Part shown: positions 33,789-64,000 of the stretch, in pieces
Layout of the letters: each line of letters opens with the position of its first letter
How positions within the stretch are numbered: position 1 is the first letter of the stretch
Made by a program: the position numbers and the translations under genes
NCBI GenBank assembly: GCA_964612945.1
Contig: CAZTFR010000002.1
Coordinates: 7,497-71,496, forward strand
Length of the DNA stretch: 64,000 nucleotides
Source of the DNA: an uncultured Thermoplasmatales archaeon
Lineage (GTDB): Archaea; Thermoplasmatota; E2; DHVEG-1
Direction: 5' to 3'
Notes under the pieces: model-generated
What the model saw: only the letters and a program-made list of their open reading frames with translations
Database searches by the model: none
Told to the model about the DNA's origin: nothing

Positions 33789-34250
33789 ATGACCCTCAAA
33801 AACTATGAAATCTTAGAAGACGCCATAAACTATCATTTCACCAACAAGGCACTTCTTGAGGAGGCATTAACCCATAAAACCTATGCATTTGAGTCACCAA
33901 CACCGATTCAATATAACGAACGGCTCGAATTCCTTGGCGATAGCATCCTCAATTTCATCGTCGCCGAACAACTCTACAAAAGCAACCGCTACTTCTCCGA
34001 AGGAGAACTCACCCGACGACGTGCCTCTGGGGTCAACAATCGCTTCCTTGCAGATATCTCAAAAAAACTGGGAGTCGGTTCCTATCTCAACCTGGGACGA
34101 GGAGAAACCAAACAACATGGTGCAAAAAATAGAACCAATCTCGCCAACGCACTCGAAGCACTCATTGGCGCGATCTATTTGGACTCCGACATTGACACCG
34201 TCCGCGACTTTATTTTAGATACAATCTTTTCAAAACAATTTGTCTTTTAG
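33789..34250 (+). CDS. Mini-III-type ribonuclease III (catalytic domain only, no dsRBD)
   Basis: 153 aa with the RNase III signature ERLEFLGDSILNFIV and downstream acidic residues; too short for a dsRBD. Confidence 0.6.
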   Translation: MTLKNYEILEDAINYHFTNKALLEEALTHKTYAFESPTPIQYNERLEFLGDSILNFIVAEQLYKSNRYFSEGELTRRRASGVNNRFLADISKKLGVGSYLNLGRGETKQHGAKNRTNLANALEALIGAIYLDSDIDTVRDFILDTIFSKQFVF

Positions 34251-42503: not shown

Positions 42504-42980
42504 ATGCGTCATTCGGTACAGACTGGTTTTAGCTTTGGGTTGACCTCAGGGATTATTACAACTCTTGGTCTTATCGTTGGGTTGTACTCAAGTACCAATG
42601 ATCGCCTTGTGGTTATCGGAGGGATTATTACTATTGCGATTGCTGATGCTTTATCTGATTCATTGGGTATTCATATTTCAGAGGAATCAGAGTGTGTGCA
42701 TACTGTTAAGGAAATTTGGGAGTCTACGTTGGCAACCTTTTTTTCAAAGTTTGTCTTTTCTTCTTCGTTTCTGCTTCCCGTTGTTTTCTGTGATCTTCTT
42801 GTCGCAATTTATATCAGTGTCATCTGGGGTTTTTCCTTGATTGCCGTTTTTAGCTATCTGTGTGCTACACAGCAGAACAAAAGTCCGTGGGAGGCTATTG
42901 TCGAGCATCTGAGTATTGGTACTGTTGTGATTGTGGTGACGTTTCTTGTAGGTCGATGGGTTTCACATACGTTTGGATAA
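42504..42980 (+). CDS. Short VIT1/CCC1-family-like membrane protein
   Basis: GFSFGLTSGIITTLGLIVGL...IAIADALSDSLGIHISEESE resembles the VIT-family TM1/cytoplasmic acidic loop. Confidence 0.4.
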   Translation: MRHSVQTGFSFGLTSGIITTLGLIVGLYSSTNDRLVVIGGIITIAIADALSDSLGIHISEESECVHTVKEIWESTLATFFSKFVFSSSFLLPVVFCDLLVAIYISVIWGFSLIAVFSYLCATQQNKSPWEAIVEHLSIGTVVIVVTFLVGRWVSHTFG

Positions 42981-43042: not shown

Positions 43043-44350
43043 ATGCATGTGAACAGCTCTGTTGTTTTGTTTGTTAATTTTCTTCTGTTTTGTAGTATGC
43101 TCTCTGGGCCTGTTGGTGCCGAATCGTTCTCAACTGATACGATTAATCCTGTGAGTGTGGCGTCATCGTTTATGGAGGAGATTGTGGCACAGGTTGATGA
43201 GTCCTTGGTTCGTATGTATCATGAAAATCTTATGAGCTTTGGCCCTCGTTATACCGGCTCGATTAATTGTACGCTTGCGGGACAGTATTTGTATGAGTGT
43301 TTTGAGGAGATGAATCTGTCTGTTGCGTTTCATGAGTGGGAGTATGATGGGTTTCATAGTCGAAATGTGGTGGCTACTCTTGAGGGAACTGATCCGGATC
43401 GTCATGGATATTATGTGGTGAGTGCGCATTATGATTGCACGCCGGGTTCTCTTGGTGCTGATGATGATGGCTCTGGTGTTGCTGCGGTGCTTTCGATTGC
43501 CCAGATTATGAGTCAGTATCAGTTTAATAATACCGTTCGTTTTATCTTATTTAGTGGTGAGGAGGTGGGAACGTATGGGAGTTTTTCTTATGCCTGTGAT
43601 TGCTATCAGAATGGTGATGATGTTCTTGGAGTGATCAATCTTGATATGATTGGGTATGCAAATACGACGAAAGGGGGTCGTCTTATCCGGTTTCATTCTC
43701 CTAAGCGGTCGGAATGGATTGCAGAGTGGGCATCTGAGGTGAGTATGCGGTATTCTGATCTTCTGCATATGGGTGTGGAGCTTCGTCCGAACTATATTGG
43801 TGCGGATCATCAGGGGTTTGTGCAATTTGGTTATGATGGTGTCTGGATTGCTCATCACGATGGATACCCCTGGGGGAACACTCCGCAGGATACTCCTGAT
43901 CATTTAAACTGGACGTATCAAATTAAGGCAACTCGGTTTTTGCTTGCGTTTGTCGTCGATCTTGCCCGGACATCTATTCCTATTCAGGTGCATCTGCGAA
44001 CGCCTTATGAGGGTTCGTTGTCTCTGTTTGATCGATCGGTGTGGTATCTAGATGGGGGTAAACCTTGGTATTTAGAGCTGCGTGGGGTGACCCTTCTTAT
44101 TGGGGGAGCGACTGCCCTATGTGAGGTGTTTAGTAAAGATCCGGTTGAGCAGGTTATCTTTTGTATTGATGATGATTTTCTCCGTGGGGATTCTCAACCA
44201 CCGTATGAATGGAAGATCCAAGGGAAGTTCTTTCCCCTCATTGGGCGGCATACGTTGCGGGTGTTTGCCTATACGACAACAGGGGAGATGGCCACTGATG
44301 AAATGGATATCTTTATTGTTACCCTTTCCTGTCAATATGGGAGATTTTAA
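43043..44350 (+). CDS. Secreted aminopeptidase, peptidase M28, with C-terminal Ig-like module
   Basis: Signal peptide; M28 zinc ligands (...HYDCTPGSLGADDDGSGVAAVL...FSGEE...); C-terminus PYEWKIQGKF...RVFAYTTTG shared-domain signature. Confidence 0.7.
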   Translation: MHVNSSVVLFVNFLLFCSMLSGPVGAESFSTDTINPVSVASSFMEEIVAQVDESLVRMYHENLMSFGPRYTGSINCTLAGQYLYECFEEMNLSVAFHEWEYDGFHSRNVVATLEGTDPDRHGYYVVSAHYDCTPGSLGADDDGSGVAAVLSIAQIMSQYQFNNTVRFILFSGEEVGTYGSFSYACDCYQNGDDVLGVINLDMIGYANTTKGGRLIRFHSPKRSEWIAEWASEVSMRYSDLLHMGVELRPNYIGADHQGFVQFGYDGVWIAHHDGYPWGNTPQDTPDHLNWTYQIKATRFLLAFVVDLARTSIPIQVHLRTPYEGSLSLFDRSVWYLDGGKPWYLELRGVTLLIGGATALCEVFSKDPVEQVIFCIDDDFLRGDSQPPYEWKIQGKFFPLIGRHTLRVFAYTTTGEMATDEMDIFIVTLSCQYGRF

Positions 44351-45073
44351 ATGAAGAAACAGCACGTGATGCACGCAGGCGGCCTATTGCTTTGTCTGCT
44401 TGTTCTTAGCTCAAGTGGTTTGTCTACTTCTTTTGATGATTCTGGTGGGTCTTGTCGTACTGTTGCATCTGATGAACCTGTTGTTGTGGTGATGGGGTTT
44501 GAACCATTTGATGTCTATAAGGTAAATCCATCGCAGCTTATTGCTGAGGCACTGCAGAATACAACAGTTGTAGATGCTCGTGTTATTGGAGTGGTGCTTC
44601 CTGTGGAGTATGAAGCCTCTGTAGAGCAGGTAGTTGAGGCCATTGAGCAGTATGATCCGGTGTTGGTGATCAGTACGGGTCTGTCTGCAGATGCTAAGGG
44701 TGTGGAGGTTGAAAAAGTGGGGGTGAATCTGAAAACTGTTGTGCGAGATGATGGGCGCTGGTCGCTTCCCCGTCGTATCGATACAAGGGGTCCCTTGTTT
44801 CGTTTGTCTCCTTTTCCAGTGTGGTCGCTTGTTCAGATGTTGTCAGAAAAGGGGATTGCTGCATCAATGAGTGTTCATGCTGGCCTTTATATTTGTAATG
44901 CGGTATTGTACGAGACACTGGGATATATCAGTGAGCAGGAGATGGATCTTCCCTGTGGATTTTTGCATGTTCCTCTGCTTGATTCTCAGGATCCTGAGGG
45001 GATGGCATTGGAGGTGATGATTGATGCTGTGGAGCAGACGATCATCTACCTGCGTACCACCGCTGTTATGTAG
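44351..45073 (+). CDS. pcp: Pyroglutamyl peptidase I (peptidase C15) carrying an N-terminal signal peptide
   Basis: 240 aa; Pcp-like core (VVVMGFEPFD...; Cys in LYICNAVLYE; His in GFLHVP); N-terminal MKKQHVMHAGGLLLCLLVLSSSG signal; starts directly after the M28 stop. Confidence 0.6.
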   Translation: MKKQHVMHAGGLLLCLLVLSSSGLSTSFDDSGGSCRTVASDEPVVVVMGFEPFDVYKVNPSQLIAEALQNTTVVDARVIGVVLPVEYEASVEQVVEAIEQYDPVLVISTGLSADAKGVEVEKVGVNLKTVVRDDGRWSLPRRIDTRGPLFRLSPFPVWSLVQMLSEKGIAASMSVHAGLYICNAVLYETLGYISEQEMDLPCGFLHVPLLDSQDPEGMALEVMIDAVEQTIIYLRTTAVM

Positions 45074-45116
45074 CGTGTTTTGTACGAAAATTTATAAGGA
45101 TTTAGCATCTGTCGGT

Positions 45117-45419
45117 ATGGTGATGAGAGAGCTTACTAAGGCCCAGTTGATTATTGGGTTTCTTGCGTTTTTTTCCACGGTTGTCTTGATCCTTCGTCCA
45201 TCTGAGAACGGGCTCACGCTTATCGATGTCATCGGTAATTTTTTTCTTCAACTCGTGTTAGTCTTGGTGCTTTCCTATGCGGTGCTTGCTCTTCTTGAAT
45301 GGATTCGTTTATTTGAGCTGAAAATAAATGCAGTGTTAACCTATTTATTTCTAGTGACCTTTGTGTATCTTGCCAATTTTGTTAATCTGTTACATGCTGA
45401 TTTGATTGTTTGGTTGTAA
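45117..45419 (+). CDS. Small 3-TM membrane protein
   Basis: Track ORF trimmed to the Met after the pcp stop; hydrophobic throughout. Confidence 0.3.
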   Translation: MVMRELTKAQLIIGFLAFFSTVVLILRPSENGLTLIDVIGNFFLQLVLVLVLSYAVLALLEWIRLFELKINAVLTYLFLVTFVYLANFVNLLHADLIVWL

Positions 45420-46368
45420 GGTGTTGAACGATACTGGTGAGTTCTTGTTGTTCGTTGAGAATGGGTGTTGCGGTGACGGTGAGTGTTTGTTGTATGGAGG
45501 GCTCGTAGAACTCTAGAGTGGTTGCTTGTTTGGATTTATAGACGGTGTTGCAGGGGCAGGAGTCTTTAGGAGTATTGGTGCCATGGACGATCTGCCAGCA
45601 TTTCTTTCCAATGCAGTCTGCGGGTTGTTTGTTAAAAAGCTGTGCGCAGGCTGCGGTGACCCGTTTGATGGTAAAATTGGTGTCCAGGACTAGGATTTTT
45701 TCCTGCAGAAGGTTGAGGGTGATGGTCCATTCTTTGGTGATCTGCTTGAGTTTGTGTTCAAGCATTTTTTCTTCGGTGATATTTTTAATGATAATAGTGA
45801 CGCCGGGTTCTCCGTTGTCGAGGGTGGTGGGGATGTGTTGTATTTCAAGGTGTAGGATGTGGTTGTTTCGGTGTAGCGTGGTTTGCAGTTGGGTTCGTTT
45901 TCCCTCGAGTGCGTGGTAGATGTTGGGGATGAACTCGGGGCGGGAAAAAAGTGATTGGGAGAGGTGTTCGATGTGTTTTCCGATGATGTCCTCTTTGGTG
46001 AGGTCGAGAAGGTCGAGGAGGCCATCGTTTATTTGGATAAATTCAAGGTTTTTGTCCAAGAGTAGTGAGTAATCTGCGGTGATGTTGAGCATGGTGGAAA
46101 GCGGGATGCGTCGTGAGGGAAAGTAGACTTTTGCGGGACCAAAGGTGATCATTTCGGCATGTCCTGAGATGAGTAAGATGTCTAGATATTTGGCTACAGA
46201 GTTGCGGTTGATGCCGATTTCTCGGGCGATATCGGTGACAGTCATGCCTTTCGGGTTGTTTTTTAATATAGCCCGGATTCGTCCTAGTTCCTTTTGATAA
46301 CTCTCCACACAGTCAACATCTGCTGGTTTGTATAAATGCATTTCGTTTTTGCCAACCACTTTTGCCAT
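45382..46368 (-). CDS. Winged-HTH (TrmB/Bat-like) transcriptional regulator with two PAS domains
   Basis: N-terminal MTVTDIAREIGINRNSVAKYLDILLISG HTH, then two PAS-like segments, the second with a Cys cluster CWQIVHG...SCPCN. Confidence 0.55.
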   Translation of the reverse strand: MAKVVGKNEMHLYKPADVDCVESYQKELGRIRAILKNNPKGMTVTDIAREIGINRNSVAKYLDILLISGHAEMITFGPAKVYFPSRRIPLSTMLNITADYSLLLDKNLEFIQINDGLLDLLDLTKEDIIGKHIEHLSQSLFSRPEFIPNIYHALEGKRTQLQTTLHRNNHILHLEIQHIPTTLDNGEPGVTIIIKNITEEKMLEHKLKQITKEWTITLNLLQEKILVLDTNFTIKRVTAACAQLFNKQPADCIGKKCWQIVHGTNTPKDSCPCNTVYKSKQATTLEFYEPSIQQTLTVTATPILNEQQELTSIVQHLTTKQSNQHVTD

Positions 46369-46833
46369 GCAAAAGGGAAAAGTTTTATATACTAAAAATA
46401 TGATACTGCATGTGCCAGGCGTTAATGCAAGGCAAAGAGGGATAGGGATAAAATATGAAACTTACTCGATCCGGCCAGATGGCTGGATATCTTCGTCGCA
46501 CCACATGGCTTCCATCACATCCAGCAAGCCATGTGTTTCTCTCCATCGTGCATCGCATCCCTTTTTTTCCCACTCTCCTGCATGCATTGCCCTGTCATCC
46601 TGGCATACTTTCCTCCTATAAAACCGTGAGGTACCTCCTGAAAAAGCATGCATCCCATCTACCTTTTCCAATAGGGGGTACCTCCCACACCATTTTTTTT
46701 TTTTTGTCAACATCTCTCTTTTGAGAGATCGTTTTAGCAATTGAACTATTCAGATGAAAAAATGAACAGATATCTCTTATGACTATAGTCTTATATATGG
46801 GAGGTAACTATTGGTATTGCTTGGGAGGATAAA

Positions 46834-47586
46834 ATGTTCGGATCTAATTCCTATTTGAGATATATGTCTCTGGCTATGGTTGTTTTACTGTTGGGTGTTG
46901 CAGTAGTACCAAGTATCAACGCGAATGTAGATTCCAAACTTATTGAAATTAAAACAAATTATATTGGCATATCTAGAATAAGACCTCATACTGTAAAACT
47001 TACACAAAAACAAAATATAGAATTGGACCAATTATTTAACAATATTAAAAAAGATTTAGAAAAAGCAGAGAATAGAGCAGAATTAGAAGAATCATTCAAA
47101 AATGCATTTATTCAACTTGAAAAATTTGGCCTTATTACCCATGAAAAACAATCTGTTCAAATAAATAATCGTATTCTAATAATTGGATTTGCACATTGGA
47201 TTGATTTTTTCATTCACCCAGATATTATCTCAAGTGGCATATTTCCCAGGTTTTTCAATTTTTTACATACTCCATCTTTATTAGTATATTTATTACCATT
47301 AAAATTTAATTCAACTATATCATTTGGAACTCGTTCAGGAAGCCTTGGTGGAGGTGCTCTCACTCACGAATCAAATGGTTGGTTATTTTCAACAGATTTG
47401 CATGAGAAAAAGTATTGGAACGGTTCTTTTGTAGGAGGCTTAGATACTATTGAATTTCGGGGTAGTTTTAGTTGGATAATATATTATATTGGAGCAAAAG
47501 GTTTCAAAGGTATTAATATAGCTCGTCCCGAAAGGAATACATTTTTGATAGGAACTGTTGATAATGTAAATTTAGATCAATTCTAA
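46834..47586 (+). CDS. Secreted hypothetical protein (AT-rich gene)
   Basis: 250 aa, signal peptide MSLAMVVLLLGVAVVPSINA; no known motif; has a decayed paralogue immediately downstream. Confidence 0.45.
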   Translation: MFGSNSYLRYMSLAMVVLLLGVAVVPSINANVDSKLIEIKTNYIGISRIRPHTVKLTQKQNIELDQLFNNIKKDLEKAENRAELEESFKNAFIQLEKFGLITHEKQSVQINNRILIIGFAHWIDFFIHPDIISSGIFPRFFNFLHTPSLLVYLLPLKFNSTISFGTRSGSLGGGALTHESNGWLFSTDLHEKKYWNGSFVGGLDTIEFRGSFSWIIYYIGAKGFKGINIARPERNTFLIGTVDNVNLDQF

Positions 47587-47589
47587 ACT

Positions 47590-48130
47590 CAACACCACAA
47601 CAATCATTCTGCTCCTCCTTGGCGTAGCCGTTGCTCCTTTGATGCAGGCAGAACTAAAACTCCACGAATCAGATTATATTGAAGTCCAGACAGAATTCTG
47701 TGGACTTTTTAGAAAACCACACACCACACAGCTTACACAGAATGAGGCAATGGAACTGGAACACCTCATTGAAGACATTGAAAACAGGTTGTTACAGACG
47801 GAGACGCGATAGCAGACAGTAGAAATTTACCATGAAACACTTGACAAATTTCATAACTATGGTTTAATTGAGGATACCTGTTTTAATCAGTTGAAGAGAA
47901 ATATAATTTTTCCCCCTCTGAGAACTATGGTTATTGGTTTTGCCCATTTGATTCACTTTATACTGATACAATATATGTAAATTGGAGGAAAATTCGTTTT
48001 ATAGGAGATCCTAATATTAGGGTCAGGGCAAAAGATATACATGAGACTATTGGCCCATGGGAATATCTAAAAGTTTCTCTTTCCAAAAACTATCCTTCAG
48101 ATAATATTTTCTCCAGGACACGAAATGAAA
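47590..48130 (+). pseudogene. Decayed tandem paralogue of 46834..47586
   Basis: Translation gives LLLGVAVAPLMQAELKLHESDYIEVQTEFCGLFRKPHTTQLTQNEAMELEHLIEDIENRLLQTETR*QTVEIYHETLDKFHNYGLIEDTCFNQLKRNIIFPPLRTMVIGFAHLIHF. This is colinear with ...RPHTVKLTQKQNIELDQLFNNIKKDLEKAE...FIQLEKFGLITHEKQSVQINNRILIIGFAHWIDFF of the upstream gene, but carries an in-frame TAG and frame breaks. Confidence 0.45.
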
Positions 48131-48280
48131 TATATTGCAGTTCACTCAAGAAATAGAAGATATTCTATATAGTAGAGAGTTTTTATTCAATAGAGAATTA
48201 ACAATAAAATACTTGGGATTAAGAAACAACTATTTTCCTTTAAAAATGTTAAAATATGATATCATATATCCAAAAAAACA

Positions 48281-48487
48281 ATGCATTATCAAAAATGGAG
48301 TAAGATGTATACATTCGGCTTTTTTCTGGGAAGTGCTGTTGGAGCTGCAATATTATTGATTCTTTGGTTTCTGGGATTTGACACGTCGATATCCTATTTT
48401 GCTAAACTCTTTTTATTTCTCATCATTGTGATCTCATTTAGTATTGGTGTATGGTATTATGAATTGAGGAAAAATAAAAAAAAATAA
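48281..48487 (+). CDS. Small 2-TM membrane protein
   Basis: 68 aa, two hydrophobic helices, Lys-rich tail; AT-rich. Confidence 0.3.
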   Translation: MHYQKWSKMYTFGFFLGSAVGAAILLILWFLGFDTSISYFAKLFLFLIIVISFSIGVWYYELRKNKKK

Positions 48488-48883
48488 ACTGTGAACTGTA
48501 GAGTATATCACGTGAGTTTAGAAAAAAGATAAATACTTTGAAACAGAGCGTACGTTGGGTAAAAAATGGGTAGAAAAAGATGGCTTGGGGTTTTTGTTGT
48601 GTTTATGATTCTGAATATTATTCTGATTCCAGTGACCATGTTTAATGTTCTATCAATAAATCTTATAGCTTTACATTTGATACGAGGTTGCCTGATATTT
48701 TTTGCTCTCGTTGCACTACTCATAGCAGTTCTATCAAAACAATAATATGATTTTTATTTCGTGGATATTCATAATTAATTCTATAAACGGAGTTTGATAC
48801 GTTCCACTTTTTTCCCCAAGCATCCTTTAACAAAGAAAAAAAGTATATGTACACCAATACATACAACACCTTCAGAGGATCAA

Positions 48884-50848
48884 ATGAAACGTAGTCTTAC
48901 CGCTCTGGACATCACGGCCATCTCCTACGAGATGAACCAGTTGAGCGGAAGCTACATCGACAAAATCTACCAACTCAGCCCCAGCGAACTGCTCATCAGA
49001 ATCAACAATACAAAAACCCGGCAAAAAGAGCACCTCTACATCCAAAACGAAACACTCATCGCACTTACCACGCAGTCCTTTGAAACACCACAGAAACCAT
49101 CTGTGTTTGCTCAAACCCTGCGAAAATACCTGCTGAATGGAAGAATAACACATGTCACCCAACACCCCTTCGATCGTATCATCCACATCATTATCACCAA
49201 AAAAAGTGTCTACACAATCACCATTGAACTCTTCAAAAATGGAAACATCCTGCTTCTCAACGAAGACAACACTATCCTGCTTCCCCTCCGAAATCAACAC
49301 TGGGCACACCGCATCATCAAACCCAACCATCCCTATACCCCGCCACCTGCTCAACAAAACCCGTTCGCTCTCACCAAAGACCAGTTCACTCAGCTTCTTA
49401 AGCAAAGCAACAAAGATCTCGTCCGCACCTTGGCAATCGACCTCAACTTCGGTGGCACCTACGCCGAGGAACTCTGCATCCGAGCAGACCTACAGAAAAA
49501 CACCGAAACAAACAAGCTTTCCCCTCCGCAAATAGCTTTGCTGTACACCACCATGCAGCAGCTACTCGCACCCTTCAAAACACACACCTACTCCCCCCAA
49601 CATGTCTACCACAACGACACCCTCATCGACATCATCCCACTTCCCCTCCAAACCTACCACCAGTTCACCCTCAAACCCATACAAAGCTTTCTAGCAGGAT
49701 TCACTCCGCTTATCACCCCGCCAAAAAAACACGACACCACCACCAAGGCATACCAAAAAAAGAAAGATAAACTCAAACGACAACTCACCCAGCAACAAAA
49801 AACCATACAGACCTACCAACAGCACATCAAAGAAAAACAACACCACGGAGACCTGCTGTATCTACATTTCCATGAGCTTGAGCCGCTTCTCAACCAGATA
49901 CAAACCATCCTCAAACAAAAAGAAAAACAAGACGACATCACCAAAATCCAACACCACCCCCTTGTTAACACCTTTGAACCCGAAGAAAATACTCTCATTG
50001 TCACCCTCACCGACAAAAAAGGAACCAAAACAAACATCTCTCTTGACTTTCGAAAAACCATTGCAGATAACGCAAACCAAGCCTATCAACAGGGAAAAAA
50101 ACTCCGCAGCAAAATACAGGGAGCACAACAAGCCGTCAAACAAACCAAACAAAAAATCCAGACTCTGACCAAACAACAGATAAAAGAACAAGAAACATCT
50201 CCCACCACATCAAAACAACACTTCTGGTTTGAACGCTACCGCTGGTTCATCTCCTCAGAGGGAAATCTGATTGTTGCGGGAAAAGATGCAAAAACCAACG
50301 ATCAGGTAGTCAAAAAATACCTCACCGAAGGAGACCGCTATGCACACGCCGACGTTCACGGCGCACCCAGCTGCGTGATCAAACACACCGATTACACCGG
50401 AAAATCACTCGACATATCAGACAAAACACTCTCTGAGGCATGCATCTTTGCCGCAGCCTACTCAAAAGCATGGAACCAATTTGCCGAGGCACAATCTTAC
50501 TGGGTCCTCCCCGAGCAGGTCAGCAAAACACCACAAAGCGGCGAATTTGTCCCCCGCGGCGCCTTCATCATCCGTGGAAAACGAAACTACTACCAATGCA
50601 CACTCGAACTTGCCATCGGAGAAATACAGCTTGATGACACCAAAAAAATAATGGGCGGACCAGTCAGCGCCGTACAAACCCATGCTGAAAAATATGTGGT
50701 CATAAAACCTGGTGTCATGAAAAAAACAACGGCGGTCAAAAAACTTTCCACACTCTTCAACGCATCAACAGAACAACTACAACAAGTACTTCCTCCAGTA
50801 GGAATTACAATAACTGAATCAAAAGGCATCACCTTTGAGGGGCGGTGA
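48884..50848 (+). CDS. NFACT-family protein (archaeal Rqc2/FbpA homologue, ribosome quality control)
   Basis: Start reset to MKRSLTALD. NFACT-N (LTALDITAISYEMNQL..., FKNGNILL), long coiled-coil middle region, and NFACT-R/C-terminal DUF814-like (WFERYRWFISSEGNLIVAGKDAKTND...HADVHGAPS). Confidence 0.65.
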   Translation: MKRSLTALDITAISYEMNQLSGSYIDKIYQLSPSELLIRINNTKTRQKEHLYIQNETLIALTTQSFETPQKPSVFAQTLRKYLLNGRITHVTQHPFDRIIHIIITKKSVYTITIELFKNGNILLLNEDNTILLPLRNQHWAHRIIKPNHPYTPPPAQQNPFALTKDQFTQLLKQSNKDLVRTLAIDLNFGGTYAEELCIRADLQKNTETNKLSPPQIALLYTTMQQLLAPFKTHTYSPQHVYHNDTLIDIIPLPLQTYHQFTLKPIQSFLAGFTPLITPPKKHDTTTKAYQKKKDKLKRQLTQQQKTIQTYQQHIKEKQHHGDLLYLHFHELEPLLNQIQTILKQKEKQDDITKIQHHPLVNTFEPEENTLIVTLTDKKGTKTNISLDFRKTIADNANQAYQQGKKLRSKIQGAQQAVKQTKQKIQTLTKQQIKEQETSPTTSKQHFWFERYRWFISSEGNLIVAGKDAKTNDQVVKKYLTEGDRYAHADVHGAPSCVIKHTDYTGKSLDISDKTLSEACIFAAAYSKAWNQFAEAQSYWVLPEQVSKTPQSGEFVPRGAFIIRGKRNYYQCTLELAIGEIQLDDTKKIMGGPVSAVQTHAEKYVVIKPGVMKKTTAVKKLSTLFNASTEQLQQVLPPVGITITESKGITFEGR

Positions 50849-50854
50849 ACTGAA

Positions 50855-51904
50855 ATGAAAATAGTCCACACCGATCTCAAACATGGCGAAATAAAAATTG
50901 TCCCTGAAAACCTGGATGATATCTGGCATCTCTACAACATAATAGAAGAAGGAGATCTGCTCCGCGCGGTGACCTTTCGAACCGATGAACAAAAAGCAGA
51001 TCAAATTCGTTCCAAAAAATCAGAAAAAAAACGAATGAAATTAGGAATCCGCGTGGAAAAAATTAGCTTTCATGAATTCAGCGACCGACTCCGCATCACC
51101 GGTGTGATTGAGGAAGGACCTCAGGATCTTGGCTCCTATCATACCTACAATATCGATGCAGCAAAAATGGAAGCATTCTCTGTTGTAAAAGAGGAATGGA
51201 AACACCATCAGCTGGATCGATTAGAAGAAGCCGTTAAACAGCGAACTGAGTCACTCTTGTATTTTGTCTCCCTTGATGATGAGGGGGCAACAATTGCTGC
51301 ACTCCGGCAGAGTGGTATTCAAAAAATCGCTGAGGTCAGTTCCAGCAGATCAGGAAAGTTGTATGAGAGCGTGGAGACAACACATGAATATTTTGGCGAT
51401 ATCGTAGGAGTGCTTCGACATGCAGAGATTGGTGAAGCACCAGTTGTGGTAATTGGACCGGGGTTTACCCGTGAGCATTTTCTTTCCTTTGGAAAAACAC
51501 ATGCATCTGAGATTTTTTCTCATGTCCACAGTCATCCAACAGGGCATGCCGGTATGAATGGCATTCATGAGGCGATCAAAAATGGTGTTGTTGATCAAAT
51601 CACAAAGGAAAACCGGGTATCTCTTGAGACGCAGCTTGTTGAGCGTTTGTTTGAAGAAATTCGGAAAGATGGCGCAGTGGTGTATGGTCAGGATGAGGTG
51701 GTTTCTGCGTTGTCTACAGGTGCAGTTGAGCATTTATTGATTTCTGATGTGTTGCTTCGTAAAAAGGAGGGTGATAAACTGTTAGCTCATGCTCGGAACA
51801 CACAGAGTAAGTATACTGTAATTAACTCTCTTCATGAGGCTGGTAAAAAATTTGAAGGGATTGGTGGGGTGGCGGCGTTTCTTCGCTATAAAATGACTGC
51901 TTAA
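50855..51904 (+). CDS. pelA: Pelota (Dom34) mRNA surveillance / ribosome rescue factor
   Basis: 349 aa, MKIVHTDLKHGEIKIVPENLDDIWHLYNII N-terminal and eRF1-like central/C domains. Confidence 0.8.
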   Translation: MKIVHTDLKHGEIKIVPENLDDIWHLYNIIEEGDLLRAVTFRTDEQKADQIRSKKSEKKRMKLGIRVEKISFHEFSDRLRITGVIEEGPQDLGSYHTYNIDAAKMEAFSVVKEEWKHHQLDRLEEAVKQRTESLLYFVSLDDEGATIAALRQSGIQKIAEVSSSRSGKLYESVETTHEYFGDIVGVLRHAEIGEAPVVVIGPGFTREHFLSFGKTHASEIFSHVHSHPTGHAGMNGIHEAIKNGVVDQITKENRVSLETQLVERLFEEIRKDGAVVYGQDEVVSALSTGAVEHLLISDVLLRKKEGDKLLAHARNTQSKYTVINSLHEAGKKFEGIGGVAAFLRYKMTA

Positions 51905-54222: not shown

Positions 54223-55221
54223 TTAGAAATGATGGGGGCGGAAATGTTCGTATCCCTTGTTTTCAAGACGTGTTGTGGTATCATGTGAGATGCGATGGAT
54301 ACGTTGTGTTTTGGTTACTGTTCCAATCGCTGTAATCTGGTATCCTTTTTGTTGTGCCTTGTTTTGGATGCGTTCAAAATCGTTGAAATCACAGGTGAAT
54401 ACCAGTTCGTAGTCTCCGCCGAAATGAAGCGCGATTTCAAGAGGGTTTAGCTCCGGTTTGTGGTCTGATAGATGTTTAAGTTCTGCTGCGATTGGTATGG
54501 TTTGTTCGTCGATGTCAAAGCCAAGTGTGTTTCTCTCCCCGAGTTGATAAAGTGATGAGGAGAGTCCGTCGGAGAGATCCATGCAGGTGGATATTCCTTT
54601 TTGTTTGGAAAGCAGCTGTCCGAGCGGTAACTGCGGTGTGGGTCTGAACAGATGCTTGGTTGTATCCGGTGAGGCATTGTTGTGTTGGAGTGCGTAGTAG
54701 CCTGCGCCTGCTTTTCCGAGTGTTCCGGAGACTGCGACCACCTCTCCGGGTTTCATGCCGTGTCTTCCGAGATAGTTGTGTTTTCTGACACGTCCTATTG
54801 CAGTTCCACACAGGCTTATTGTTTCTGATTCTTTGAGATCTCCTCCGAGAATCTCTGTATTGTATGTTGTGCAGCAGCAAAGAGCGCCTTTGGTAAGCTG
54901 GGTGAGATAAGAGTCGGTGGTATCTGCGGGGAGGCCATAGGAGAGGAGCAGTCCGAGAGGTGTGGCGCCGCAGCAGGCCAGATCGCTCAGGTTGATTGCC
55001 ACCAGAAACCATCCCAGATCTGAGGGGGTCATCTGTGGGGGTATATGGGTGTGCTGGTGGATCATGTCACTGGTGAGGACCAGGTAGTCTTTTCCATACT
55101 CAATGCGTGCGCAGTCATCACCCAGCTGCCCTGCTGATGGTTGGTCGGAGAGCAGATCGAAGAGGTGTTTGATCGCCTGTCGTTCTCCGATGTCTTGTAA
55201 CCGGTTCACAATAGTATGCAA
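54223..55221 (-). CDS. thiL: Thiamine-monophosphate kinase (AIR-synthase-related PurM fold)
   Basis: 332 aa, GDDCARIEY...LVLTSDMIHQHTHI...DLGWFLVAINLSDLACCGATP ThiL pattern. Confidence 0.6.
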   Translation of the reverse strand: MHTIVNRLQDIGERQAIKHLFDLLSDQPSAGQLGDDCARIEYGKDYLVLTSDMIHQHTHIPPQMTPSDLGWFLVAINLSDLACCGATPLGLLLSYGLPADTTDSYLTQLTKGALCCCTTYNTEILGGDLKESETISLCGTAIGRVRKHNYLGRHGMKPGEVVAVSGTLGKAGAGYYALQHNNASPDTTKHLFRPTPQLPLGQLLSKQKGISTCMDLSDGLSSSLYQLGERNTLGFDIDEQTIPIAAELKHLSDHKPELNPLEIALHFGGDYELVFTCDFNDFERIQNKAQQKGYQITAIGTVTKTQRIHRISHDTTTRLENKGYEHFRPHHF

Positions 55222-57195: not shown

Positions 57196-57268
57196 CACAG
57201 CCTTCAGTACCACAACATCCAAAACAAAACCTCACCATAAAAAGATGCTGACAAAAAAAAAGAGTGAG

Positions 57269-57343
57269 TAGCGGGGAGTGGATTTGAACCACTGATCTAC
57301 GGGTTATGGGCCCGTCGGGATTTCCTGACTACCCCACCCCGCT
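57269..57343 (-). tRNA. tRNA-Met (CAU), initiator-like
   Basis: Hand-folded: acceptor AGCGGGG/CCCCGCU with A1:U72; D-loop with GG; anticodon stem ACGGG/CCCGU with three G:C pairs next to loop CCCAUAA (anticodon CAU); T-arm AGUGG-UUCAAAU-CCACU; discriminator A; no encoded CCA. Confidence 0.8.
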
Positions 57344-57798: not shown

Positions 57799-57881
57799 GC
57801 AGGGGTACCCGAGCGGTCAAAGGGGCAGGGCTTAGGACCCTGTGACGTAGGTCTTCGAGCGTTCGAATCGCTCCCCCTGCA
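57799..57881 (+). tRNA. tRNA-Leu (UAG)
   Basis: Hand-folded 83 nt: acceptor GCAGGGG/CCCCUGC + A73; anticodon stem CAGGG/CCCUG with loop CUUAGGA (U33, anticodon UAG, G37); long variable arm; T-arm GAGCG-UUCGAAU-CGCUC. Confidence 0.8.
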
Positions 57882-57916
57882 CTTCACCCACACAAAAAAA
57901 CAGTTCGTGTTCGACT

Positions 57917-62409: not shown

Positions 62410-62652
62410 ATGAGCACACAAATAATTCCCCTCACTGACGTGCCCCTCTATAAAACAGCACGCATACAAAGCATTCGCGGCGGCTTTGGCCTCCAACGAA
62501 AACTCCGCGTCATGGGCATACGCGAAGGCGAACGCATCAAACTTCTCAGCCGCCAACCCCTTCGTGGACCACTCACCATCCATGTCTGCGGATGTCAGAT
62601 GACCCTTGGCAGAGGCATGGCACGACACATCCTCGTGGAAGTGATCGAATAA
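62410..62652 (+). CDS. feoA: Ferrous iron transport protein A
   Basis: 80 aa SH3-like FeoA domain (...GFGLQRKLRVMGIREGERIKLL...). Confidence 0.75.
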   Translation: MSTQIIPLTDVPLYKTARIQSIRGGFGLQRKLRVMGIREGERIKLLSRQPLRGPLTIHVCGCQMTLGRGMARHILVEVIE

Positions 62653-62666
62653 AAAAAATAGTCCTC

Positions 62667-64000
62667 ATGGGAAACCCCAATGTGGGAAAAAGCGTGGTCT
62701 TCTCACGCCTCACCGGAGCAAACGTCATTGCCTCCAACTACCCCGGGACCACCGTCGACTTCTCCAAAGGAAAAATACGTCTTGACACGGAACGCGCTGA
62801 AGTCATCGACGCACCCGGCACCTACTCACTTGACCCCTCAAACAAAGCAGAAGAAGTCGCCGTACAAATGCTTCAGGATGCAGACATCATCATCAACGTT
62901 GTTAACGCCACCAACCTCGAACGAAACCTCTACCTCACCTTAGAACTCCTTGAACTGGGAAAACCTATAATCATCGCCCTTAACCTCTGGGATGAAACCC
63001 ATCACCTCGGCATCGAAATCGACATAGAACAACTCACCGAGCTTCTTGGCGTCCCTATCGTTCCCACCACCGCTCTCACCGGACAGGGAATCAAAGACCT
63101 CGTCACCCACCTCACCAAAATCGGGCCTGCCACACCAAAAAACATCACCGATGATGATGAACGATGGAAAGAAATCGGCCACATCATCAAACAAGTTGAA
63201 ACAATCACCCATCGCCATCACACCCTCCGCGACCGCCTCTCCGATCTCACCATACGACCTGCAACCGGCCTTCCCATCGCCGCAGGAATCATCCTTGCCG
63301 CCTTCTGGATCGTTCGCTTCATCGGAGAAACACTGATAACATATTTCTTTGACCCCATTTTCAACACCTACTATCTTCCCCTCATCGAACAACTCAGCGA
63401 AATCCTGGGCCCTGGCATCCTTCATACGATTCTCATCGGCGAATACGGAACATCCATCGATTTCATCGAATCACTCGGCATGCTCACCACCGGACTCTAC
63501 GTCCCCCTCGCAGCAGTCCTCCCCTACATCATCGCCTTCTACTTCATGCTCTCCGTCCTCGAAGACTCCGGCTACCTCCCACGGCTTGCAACCATCCTCG
63601 ACAACGTCTTTCATAAACTCGGCATGCACGGCCACGGCATCGTCCCCCTGTTCCTCGGACTCGGCTGCAACGTACCTGGTGCCCTCTCCACACGAACCCT
63701 TGAGACACGAAAACAACGATTCATCTCCGCAACACTGCTTGCCATCTGTGTCCCCTGCATGGCACAAATGGCCATGGTCTTCGGCATCCTCGGACAATAC
63801 GGCGTCCTCTACATCGGTCTGGTCTTTGCCACCCTCGCAGTTCTCTACCTCATCCTCGGCCTCATCCTCAACCGCTTCATCAAAGGAGAAAGCCCTGAAA
63901 TCTTTCTTGAGATACCATCCTACCGACGGCCAAGCATGCGCGCCGCCCTCAAAAAAACATGGATGCGCATCCGCTGGTTCCTCAAAGAAGCAATACCCTT
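62667..64000 (+). CDS. feoB: Ferrous iron transport protein B (5' part; continues beyond window end)
   Basis: Manual translation MGNPNVGKSVVFSRLTGANVIASNYPGTTVD... (G1/G2 motifs of the FeoB GTPase), then the membrane domain. Absent from the ORF track because it has no stop in the window; minus-strand ORFs inside it are spurious. Confidence 0.8.
   Translation, partial: MGNPNVGKSVVFSRLTGANVIASNYPGTTVDFSKGKIRLDTERAEVIDAPGTYSLDPSNKAEEVAVQMLQDADIIINVVNATNLERNLYLTLELLELGKPIIIALNLWDETHHLGIEIDIEQLTELLGVPIVPTTALTGQGIKDLVTHLTKIGPATPKNITDDDERWKEIGHIIKQVETITHRHHTLRDRLSDLTIRPATGLPIAAGIILAAFWIVRFIGETLITYFFDPIFNTYYLPLIEQLSEILGPGILHTILIGEYGTSIDFIESLGMLTTGLYVPLAAVLPYIIAFYFMLSVLEDSGYLPRLATILDNVFHKLGMHGHGIVPLFLGLGCNVPGALSTRTLETRKQRFISATLLAICVPCMAQMAMVFGILGQYGVLYIGLVFATLAVLYLILGLILNRFIKGESPEIFLEIPSYRRPSMRAALKKTWMRIRWFLKEAIP

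Follow-up and report, generated by a model that had tools for sequence, protein, structure and literature searches.

Eukaryotes and Bacillus are the systems in which ribosome-associated quality control (RQC) has been elucidated. In eukaryotes, entry into the pathway involves Dom34/Pelota together with Hbs1 and ABCE1, followed by NEMF/Rqc2 acting on the 60S subunit. ABCE1 appears as the established splitting partner of Pelota in the relevant passages of PMC8373112 and PMC7196836, and archaeal aEF1-alpha is reported to take the place of Hbs1 (cited via PMC6514570). An archaeal RQC pathway is only suggested in PMC9540759, a 2022 paper naming an NFACT protein from Pyrococcus as a candidate component of such a hypothetical pathway, and is assumed in PMC8373112. 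In its main text, Burroughs and Aravind 2014 (PMC4075521) describe an archaeal NFACT neighborhood consisting of a Mut7-C PIN RNase (with a Zn ribbon) and AMMECR1, and no conserved neighborhood in bacteria; a paper on release-factor evolution by the same authors treats Dom34 and Rqc2 separately (PMC6514570). Here, we describe a pair of neighboring genes, rqcH (encoding an NFACT protein) and pelA (encoding Pelota), on a 64,000-nt stretch of DNA (the window) from an uncultured Thermoplasmatales archaeon (assembly GCA_964612945.1, contig CAZTFR010000002.1, positions 7,497 to 71,496). The pair probably forms a translationally coupled bicistronic operon that serves two consecutive steps of ribosome rescue: splitting of the stalled ribosome and subsequent handling of the 50S-peptidyl-tRNA.

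The two genes lie on the plus strand and belong to families that already carry names, as seen from the open reading frame (ORF) list and profile searches (coordinates in Table 1). Exactly 6 nt (ACTGAA) separate the rqcH stop codon (TGA, 50846–50848) from the ATG of pelA (50855), which agrees with the coordinates and the 6-nt, same-strand spacing given in a first-pass annotation of this DNA. A Shine-Dalgarno-like motif lies across the rqcH stop codon, and a second one (GAGGA, 48875–48879) is found 4 nt ahead of the rqcH ATG. The intergenic region further upstream contains TATA-like stretches (for example tctataaa at ~48780 and aaagtatatg at 48840–48849), making it a putative promoter and 5′ untranslated region of rqcH. 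From the spacing of the two genes, we infer that they are co-transcribed.

Conservation of this arrangement within the clade was assessed in one genome per GTDB species, using a scan with an RqcH alignment. The 80 best loci, all from Thermoplasmatota (L001–L080), encode RqcH proteins with 39–53% identity to the window protein. In all 79 loci that have sequence past rqcH, pelA follows directly on the same strand. Exact stop/start assignment gives a median spacer of 3 nt, with a spacer of at most 10 nt or an overlap in 71 of the 80 loci. Moreover, a Shine-Dalgarno-like motif is present at positions −20 to −1 of pelA in 67/80 loci, often as TAGGTGA spanning the rqcH stop.

To look beyond the clade, Pelota proteins of other lineages were looked up, and a metagenome scan with a Pelota alignment led by an Archaeoglobus sequence gave 80 further loci; metagenome loci received their taxonomy from exact-sequence protein clusters. 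Over all loci, the two genes are adjacent in 106, near each other in 4 and not linked in 38, with 19 loci being uninformative, and the order in every adjacent locus is rqcH followed by pelA. Adjacent pairs outside the clade occur in Methanosarcina sp. and relatives, Methanolobus, Methanosarcinales archaeon Met12 and Methanocellaceae, as well as in all Methanomicrobiales-like metagenome loci (12/12, including an exact Methanoculleus protein). The genes of Methanosarcina and Methanoculleus overlap by 4 nt (ATGA-type). On a neighbor-joining Pelota tree, the adjacent loci fall in at least four separate clades. The loci scored as near are of the haloarchaeal Natronomonas type, with a spacing of 0.8–2.5 kb that is occupied by a DUF4013 membrane gene in the annotated example (L154). 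Where NFACT does not precede pelA, no alternative upstream partner recurs (topoisomerase, primase, S-layer and others); given this heterogeneity, NFACT is the only recurrent cross-lineage upstream partner of pelA. The linkage is thus not confined to a single genome, a possibility the first-pass annotation had raised against its own proposal of a fixed archaeal NFACT–Pelota operon. The operon is conserved in the clade, Methanomicrobiales, Methanocellales and Methanosarcinaceae, but it is missing from many other sampled lineages and is not "fixed" across archaea.

In some of these lineages, the pair is joined by ABCE1, assigned here by the presence of Fer4_RLI and two ABC domains; together with EMC6_arch, ABCE1 neighbors the pair in 10 loci. 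The Methanoculleus locus (L162) encodes rqcH–pelA–EMC6_arch–ABCE1 on one strand (ABCE1 at L162:5742–7952, +), and in eight other loci (seven Methanomicrobiales-like loci and Met12) ABCE1 and EMC6_arch are divergently oriented just upstream of rqcH. EMC6_arch, a small membrane protein, accompanies ABCE1 in all ABCE1-linked loci. ABCE1 was detected neither in the window nor at any of the 80 Thermoplasmatota loci.

These comparisons bear on whether rqcH and pelA are merely neighbors by descent, kept together without selection and with no meaning beyond convenience of transcription. Other neighbors in the clade are often retained too, such as a convergent 249-aa gene downstream of the pair (52 of 68 informative loci) and AIRS genes nearby (~40/80), and many archaeal lineages fare well without the adjacency. 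However, 79/79 loci keep the pair even as the gene upstream of rqcH turns over (DUF763 in 22, Peptidase_M28 in 18, and others), and the pair recurs in Thermoplasmatota and four Halobacteriota lineages with entirely different flanking genes. Several features weaken an explanation by neutral synteny: the pair recurs in two phyla amid unrelated flanks, its gene order is fixed, most loci have overlapping stop and start codons or a spacer of ≤10 nt, and in Methanomicrobiales it is linked to ABCE1, a functionally connected third gene. In the homologous pathway of eukaryotes, moreover, the two proteins act one after the other (PMC8373112). We therefore consider neutral synteny improbable.

The identity of the first gene is well supported. 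The product of rqcH matches the RqcH_arch equivalog NF041120 (NCBIfam) with 598.5 bits (cutoff 400), profile positions 1–642 of 645 aligning with aa 6–641. Pfam assigns NFACT_N (PF05833, 2.3e-60) to aa 8–436, followed by NFACT-R_1 (PF05670; extent and E-value in Table 1), so that NFACT-N as well as the NFACT-R domain with its HADVHGAPS motif, both predicted in the first-pass annotation, are recovered by the domain search. The closest homologs are encoded by metagenome-assembled genomes (MAGs) labeled Thermoplasmatota or Thermoplasmatales (50–55% identity). Among solved structures, NEMF (4.4e-49), Rqc2 (1.2e-26) and RqcH (1e-10) come closest to the window protein in sequence, with no archaeal NFACT structure among the PDB entries in this search. 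An AlphaFold2 model, built on an alignment of 23 sequences, has a mean predicted local distance difference test (pLDDT) score of 85.3. It shows a beta-rich N domain followed by the segments listed in Table 1, with NFACT-R extending over aa 448–565 and the middle domain forming a helix plus three-strand unit that interrupts a long antiparallel coiled coil. Foldseek searches of the PDB return ribosome-bound human NEMF (9gy4_Z, 3.8e-38), yeast Rqc2 (8aaf_a, 1.4e-29) and B. subtilis RqcH (7aqc_R, 4.3e-24) as the best matches, and the N-terminal structures 3doa and 5h3x match with template-modeling scores, TM(target), of 0.78–0.86. The C-terminal region gives no separate Pfam NFACT-C match at E≤0.01, though it lies inside the RqcH_arch profile.

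Residues D9, D97 and R98 of the N-terminal domain are invariant across the 23 aligned RqcH sequences and align with D9 and D98/R99 of yeast Rqc2 and with the LDR motif of B. subtilis RqcH, in which D97A/R98A abolishes RQC function (PMC8373112). In NFACT-R (DUF814), which carries the conserved D-R-Y-x-H-A-D..G-A-x-S motif, H488, A489, D490, G493, A494 and S496 are invariant in the orthologs. The N domain model also resembles Fpg/MutM glycosylases (Foldseek, E ~1e-4), which is compatible with NFACT being mainly an RNA-modifying or RNA-processing enzyme that uses a glycosylase-like NFACT-N on rRNA or tRNA (Burroughs and Aravind 2014), with the Pelota link reflecting general ribosome and RNA surveillance instead of tailing. 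The published association with Mut7-C RNase and AMMECR1 would fit such a role, as would the Mut7-C gene directly upstream of pelA in one Thermoplasma genome, and tailing in archaea is itself extrapolated from homologs. Nevertheless, the best full-length matches in both structure and sequence are the ribosome-bound NEMF, Rqc2 and RqcH, the conserved D9 and DR residues are the ones on which tRNA recognition and RQC function depend in bacteria and yeast, and the glycosylase-like domain of characterized homologs binds tRNA and performs no base excision (PMC8373112). An RNA-enzyme role is, in our estimate, slightly less probable even than neutral synteny.

The length and composition of RqcH required some correction. 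The first-pass annotation had described a 684-aa protein, which corresponds to the mechanical ORF 48794..50848 starting at a TTG. This start (48794) was rejected: translation from the ATG at 48884 yields 654 aa, identical to a 654-aa NCBI protein, with residue 1 aligning with the N-termini of the 22 orthologs (650–661 aa). Likewise, what was taken for an unusual, long insert of Lys/Gln-rich coiled coil is the coiled-coil/M-domain canonical for NFACT. The region (aa 285–448) is 164 aa long versus 163–170 (median 164) in the 22 orthologs, has a single residue in a mostly-gap alignment column, and belongs to a protein that matches its family profile end to end. Its Lys content of 16% is ordinary (ortholog median 17%), and Gln (16%; median 10%, maximum 17%) and Thr (13%; median 4%) are elevated. 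Over the whole protein, Gln, Thr and His reach 9.2%, 10.4% and 3.7%; the corresponding medians in the orthologs are 4.4%, 4.5% and 1.2%. This enrichment results from a gene-wide C- and A-rich coding strand (GC skew −0.37, AT skew +0.35, third-position GC skew −0.56), whereas GC skew is +0.12 in the median of 74 orthologous rqcH genes and +0.15 in the adjacent pelA. Coding strands across this genome generally lean toward C over G and A over T, many window genes doing so more mildly than rqcH, and rqcH of two related loci (L040 and L012) shows a similar drift. Horizontal gene transfer or a chimeric assembly as the cause of the contrast between rqcH and pelA finds no support: rqcH and pelA have their nearest relatives largely in the same genomes (L006, L007 and L062), and the adjacency is clade-wide.

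The second gene encodes a Pelota/Dom34 homolog with an N-terminal Sm-like domain (aa 1–127), a central domain (aa ~137–247) and a C-terminal domain (aa 258–347). It matches the TIGR00111 pelota equivalog over profile positions 1–351 (290 bits, cutoff 177.65). The Pfam search upholds the first-pass reading of this gene, with strong eRF1_1 (4.9e-33) and eRF1_3 (8.3e-20) matches and a weak eRF1_2 match (0.0011, under the gathering score). Archaeal Pelota structures are matched over their full length (3j15_A, 4.2e-66; 3oby_A, 5.1e-56; 2qi2_A, 7.8e-54). The 349-aa protein contains no catalytic GGQ motif, an absence that sets it apart from aRF1, and scores only 56.5 bits with the aRF1 model (cutoff 234.7).

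From the gene identities, the tight co-oriented spacing with a Shine-Dalgarno-like motif over the stop codon and the conservation in deep lineages, a mechanism can be proposed whose steps are modeled on the eukaryotic and bacterial systems. Pelota, delivered by aEF1-alpha, would enter a stalled 70S ribosome at its empty A site and, together with ABCE1 (encoded elsewhere in the genome), would split it, separating the 30S subunit from a 50S subunit that still carries peptidyl-tRNA. RqcH would then bind the obstructed 50S, with NFACT-N and the helix-hairpin-helix (HhH) region contacting the tRNA and the coiled coil pointing toward the stalk base, and would block the small subunit from rejoining. 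By analogy with its homologs, archaeal RqcH may bind 50S-peptidyl-tRNA and probably direct template-free, untemplated C-terminal tailing, by which the nascent chain would be marked or extruded for degradation. If co-transcribed and translationally coupled, both factors would be produced together.

Several points weigh against this operon model. General synteny is fairly high within the Thermoplasmatota clade, so conservation there is not by itself proof of selection. The predicted co-transcription is drawn from gene spacing, and the literature searched yielded no experimental evidence for any archaeal NFACT binding the 50S subunit or tailing. Neither ABCE1 nor aEF1-alpha, nor a release factor or protease, is encoded in the 64-kb window; among its ORFs from ~18.8 to 64 kb, no ABCE1, Mut7-C, AMMECR1, Pth or Vms1-like genes were found, and Mut7-C and AMMECR1 were neither near rqcH in the window nor detected in L001–L080. 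Finally, the adjacency is absent in the sampled Thermococcus, Thermoplasma and Methanomassiliicoccales-like genomes, Archaeoglobi-like loci, Methanothrix, Methanoperedens, ANME-2 and ANME-1, and in the four Thermoproteota sampled (including Saccharolobus); with so many lineages lacking it, the pairing is not required for the pathway. A version in which RqcH, once Pelota/ABCE1 has split the ribosome, serves solely for anti-association or 50S marking, adding no tail while a hydrolase releases the nascent chain directly, would suit archaea without Ltn1 and ubiquitin-type marking and without a known RqcP counterpart (PMC8373112; none among the same window ORFs), but a purely steric role would not readily account for tRNA-recognition residues that show no variation among 23 sequences with ~50% identity to the window protein, and we hold this to be the least probable of the three alternatives.

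With a rescue operon as the preferred reading, further genes come into view as potential partners. In a Thermoplasma sp. genome (GCA_008709555.1), a Mut7-C PIN-type RNase gene (L082:4523–4993, +) ends 8 nt before pelA, a single locus. Taken together with the published NFACT neighborhood, this links Mut7-C to both rescue genes in different lineages. DUF763 (PF05559, ~370 aa) is encoded by a divergent gene just upstream of rqcH in 24 of the 80 clade loci (for example L018:4553–5665, −). Its copies are 59–98% identical among loci, compared with the 39–53% of RqcH to the window protein. DUF763 is absent from the window and also occurs 2 kb from pelA in the Thermoplasma sp. (L082:8074–9153, +). It is uncharacterized, without a PDB relative and with almost no literature, and may be a further partner of the rescue genes. 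Tentatively, rqcH-pelA might be the core of a wider, undescribed archaeal stalled-ribosome network held together by pairwise operonic links, in which Mut7-C would be the missing no-go-decay endonuclease and DUF763 a new RQC accessory factor (e.g. an archaeal equivalent of RqcP or of a release/processivity factor). Such a network would comprise rqcH-pelA (here and in five lineages), its extension with ABCE1 (Methanomicrobiales and Met12), Mut7-C–pelA (Thermoplasma), the published Mut7-C/AMMECR1–NFACT neighborhood and DUF763–rqcH; we regard it as possible, though less likely than not.

Other genes surrounding the pair in the window function in glycogen metabolism and purine synthesis or encode peptidases and FeoB. 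The window copy of Peptidase_M28, directly upstream of rqcH in the 18 related genomes mentioned above, is located at 43043–44350, ~4.5 kb from rqcH. The interval between them (44351–48883) holds a Peptidase_C15 gene, a minus-strand PAS/HTH regulator and a low-GC stretch at 46.4–48.9 kb (GC 0.30–0.37). The ORFs of this stretch have no homolog in any of the 80 related loci, and it is probably a local insertion; no non-coding RNA was found in an odd region at 46.3–46.7 kb (Rfam, ARAGORN). Two tRNAs are the only RNA genes that these two tools found in the window. At 33789–34250 (+), a 153-aa RNase III-like protein (Ribonucleas_3_3, 3.4e-33) is encoded beside radical-SAM/HhH and CBS-domain proteins; this family is probably uncommon in archaea. 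The pelA region of Thermococcus (L081) has an AIR-synthase-related gene convergent with pelA and VIT1 and FeoB nearby, as does the window, which may be residual ancient synteny or coincidence. A scan of viral contigs for further loci gave no archaeal matches. Two giant-virus MAG contigs from IMG/VR carry NFACT-like regions (L088:1016–2584 and L089:5001–7124; 28–43% identity in the best segment), which may represent either contamination from a eukaryote or an NFACT homolog of viral origin.

Table 1. Coordinates of the rqcH-pelA pair, the parts of its products and further features mentioned in the text (window positions unless a locus is named).
Feature	Coordinates	Strand	Basis
Upstream intergenic region	48724..48883	+	A/T-rich, TATA-like stretches, read from sequence
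rqcH, archaeal NFACT/Rqc2/NEMF homolog, 654 aa + stop	48884..50848	+	NF041120, Pfam, AlphaFold2, Foldseek
NFACT-N domain, aa ~1–160, with D9 and D97-R98 "DR" motif	48884..49363	+	Alignment, Fpg/MutM-like fold matches
Helix-hairpin-helix region, aa ~165–233	49376..49582	+	AlphaFold2 helices 165–174, 179–186, 190–200, 214–233; within Pfam NFACT_N match
Coiled-coil helix 1 (aa 285–343), middle domain (aa 349–387), coiled-coil helix 2 (aa 393–436)	49736..50191	+	AlphaFold2 secondary structure
NFACT-R, aa 452–565, HADVHGAPS at aa 488–496	50237..50578	+	PF05670, 1.2e-32
C-terminal alpha/beta domain, aa ~576–647, corresponding by predicted fold to NFACT-C	50609..50824	+	AlphaFold2 fold; inside RqcH_arch profile
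Junction	50844..50854	+	GGTGA Shine-Dalgarno-like motif (50844–50848) over rqcH stop, then ACTGAA spacer
pelA, Pelota/Dom34 homolog, 349 aa + stop	50855..51904	+	TIGR00111, Pfam, PDB matches
tRNA-Met (CAT)	57268–57343	-	Rfam/ARAGORN
tRNA-Leu (TAG)	57799–57882	+	Rfam/ARAGORN
AIR-synthase-related gene; VIT1; FeoB (window counterparts of the Thermococcus (L081) genes)	54223–55221; 42504–42980; 62592–63998	-; +; +	
Divergent ABCE1/EMC6_arch loci, upstream of rqcH	L109, L150, L152, L156, L157, L158, L160, L168	-	

Both genes are of known kinds and are routinely annotated, and the pair is not a new kind of system. The linkage itself is apparently undescribed: we found no prior report of it in full-text literature, where an earlier mention in supplements or some subscription papers is possible. 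It is also unsurprising, because it is present in genera with cultured members (Methanosarcina, Methanolobus and Methanoculleus) and should be visible in any gene-neighborhood database. The conserved rqcH-pelA(-ABCE1) linkage is modestly novel as genomic-context evidence placing archaeal NFACT in the Pelota/ABCE1 splitting pathway, and the eukaryotic order of events would then predate eukaryotes. Tractable carriers for genetics are Methanosarcina (with the tight operon) and haloarchaea (with the spaced version), and Mut7-C and DUF763 are flagged as uncharacterized candidates.

Among the described systems, the entry into eukaryotic RQC uses the same protein families as the window pair, and its order of action matches the archaeal gene pairing. 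Human NEMF (4.4e-49) is a closer match to the window NFACT than bacterial RqcH (1e-10) is, the modeled C-terminal domain of the window NFACT may be likened to the archaeal/eukaryotic-type NFACT-C covered in the main text of PMC4075521, and the window Pelota is a full three-domain Dom34 homolog without GGQ. Unlike its eukaryotic counterparts, the window pair is arranged as a prokaryotic operon, with no Ltn1, Rqc1, Cdc48-cofactor or ubiquitin components nearby. The RqcH–RqcP system of B. subtilis shares the NFACT-N/HhH/coiled-coil-M/NFACT-R architecture and the DR motif with the window RqcH; however, bacteria are without Pelota and ABCE1, and bacterial RqcH (~570 aa) is without NFACT-C and has low similarity to the window protein. 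The archaeal Mut7-C/AMMECR1 neighborhood is likewise a conserved operonic context for NFACT that points to RNA and ribosome surveillance, whereas Pelota and ABCE1, the partners seen here, are not named as NFACT neighbors in the main text of that study (PMC4075521).

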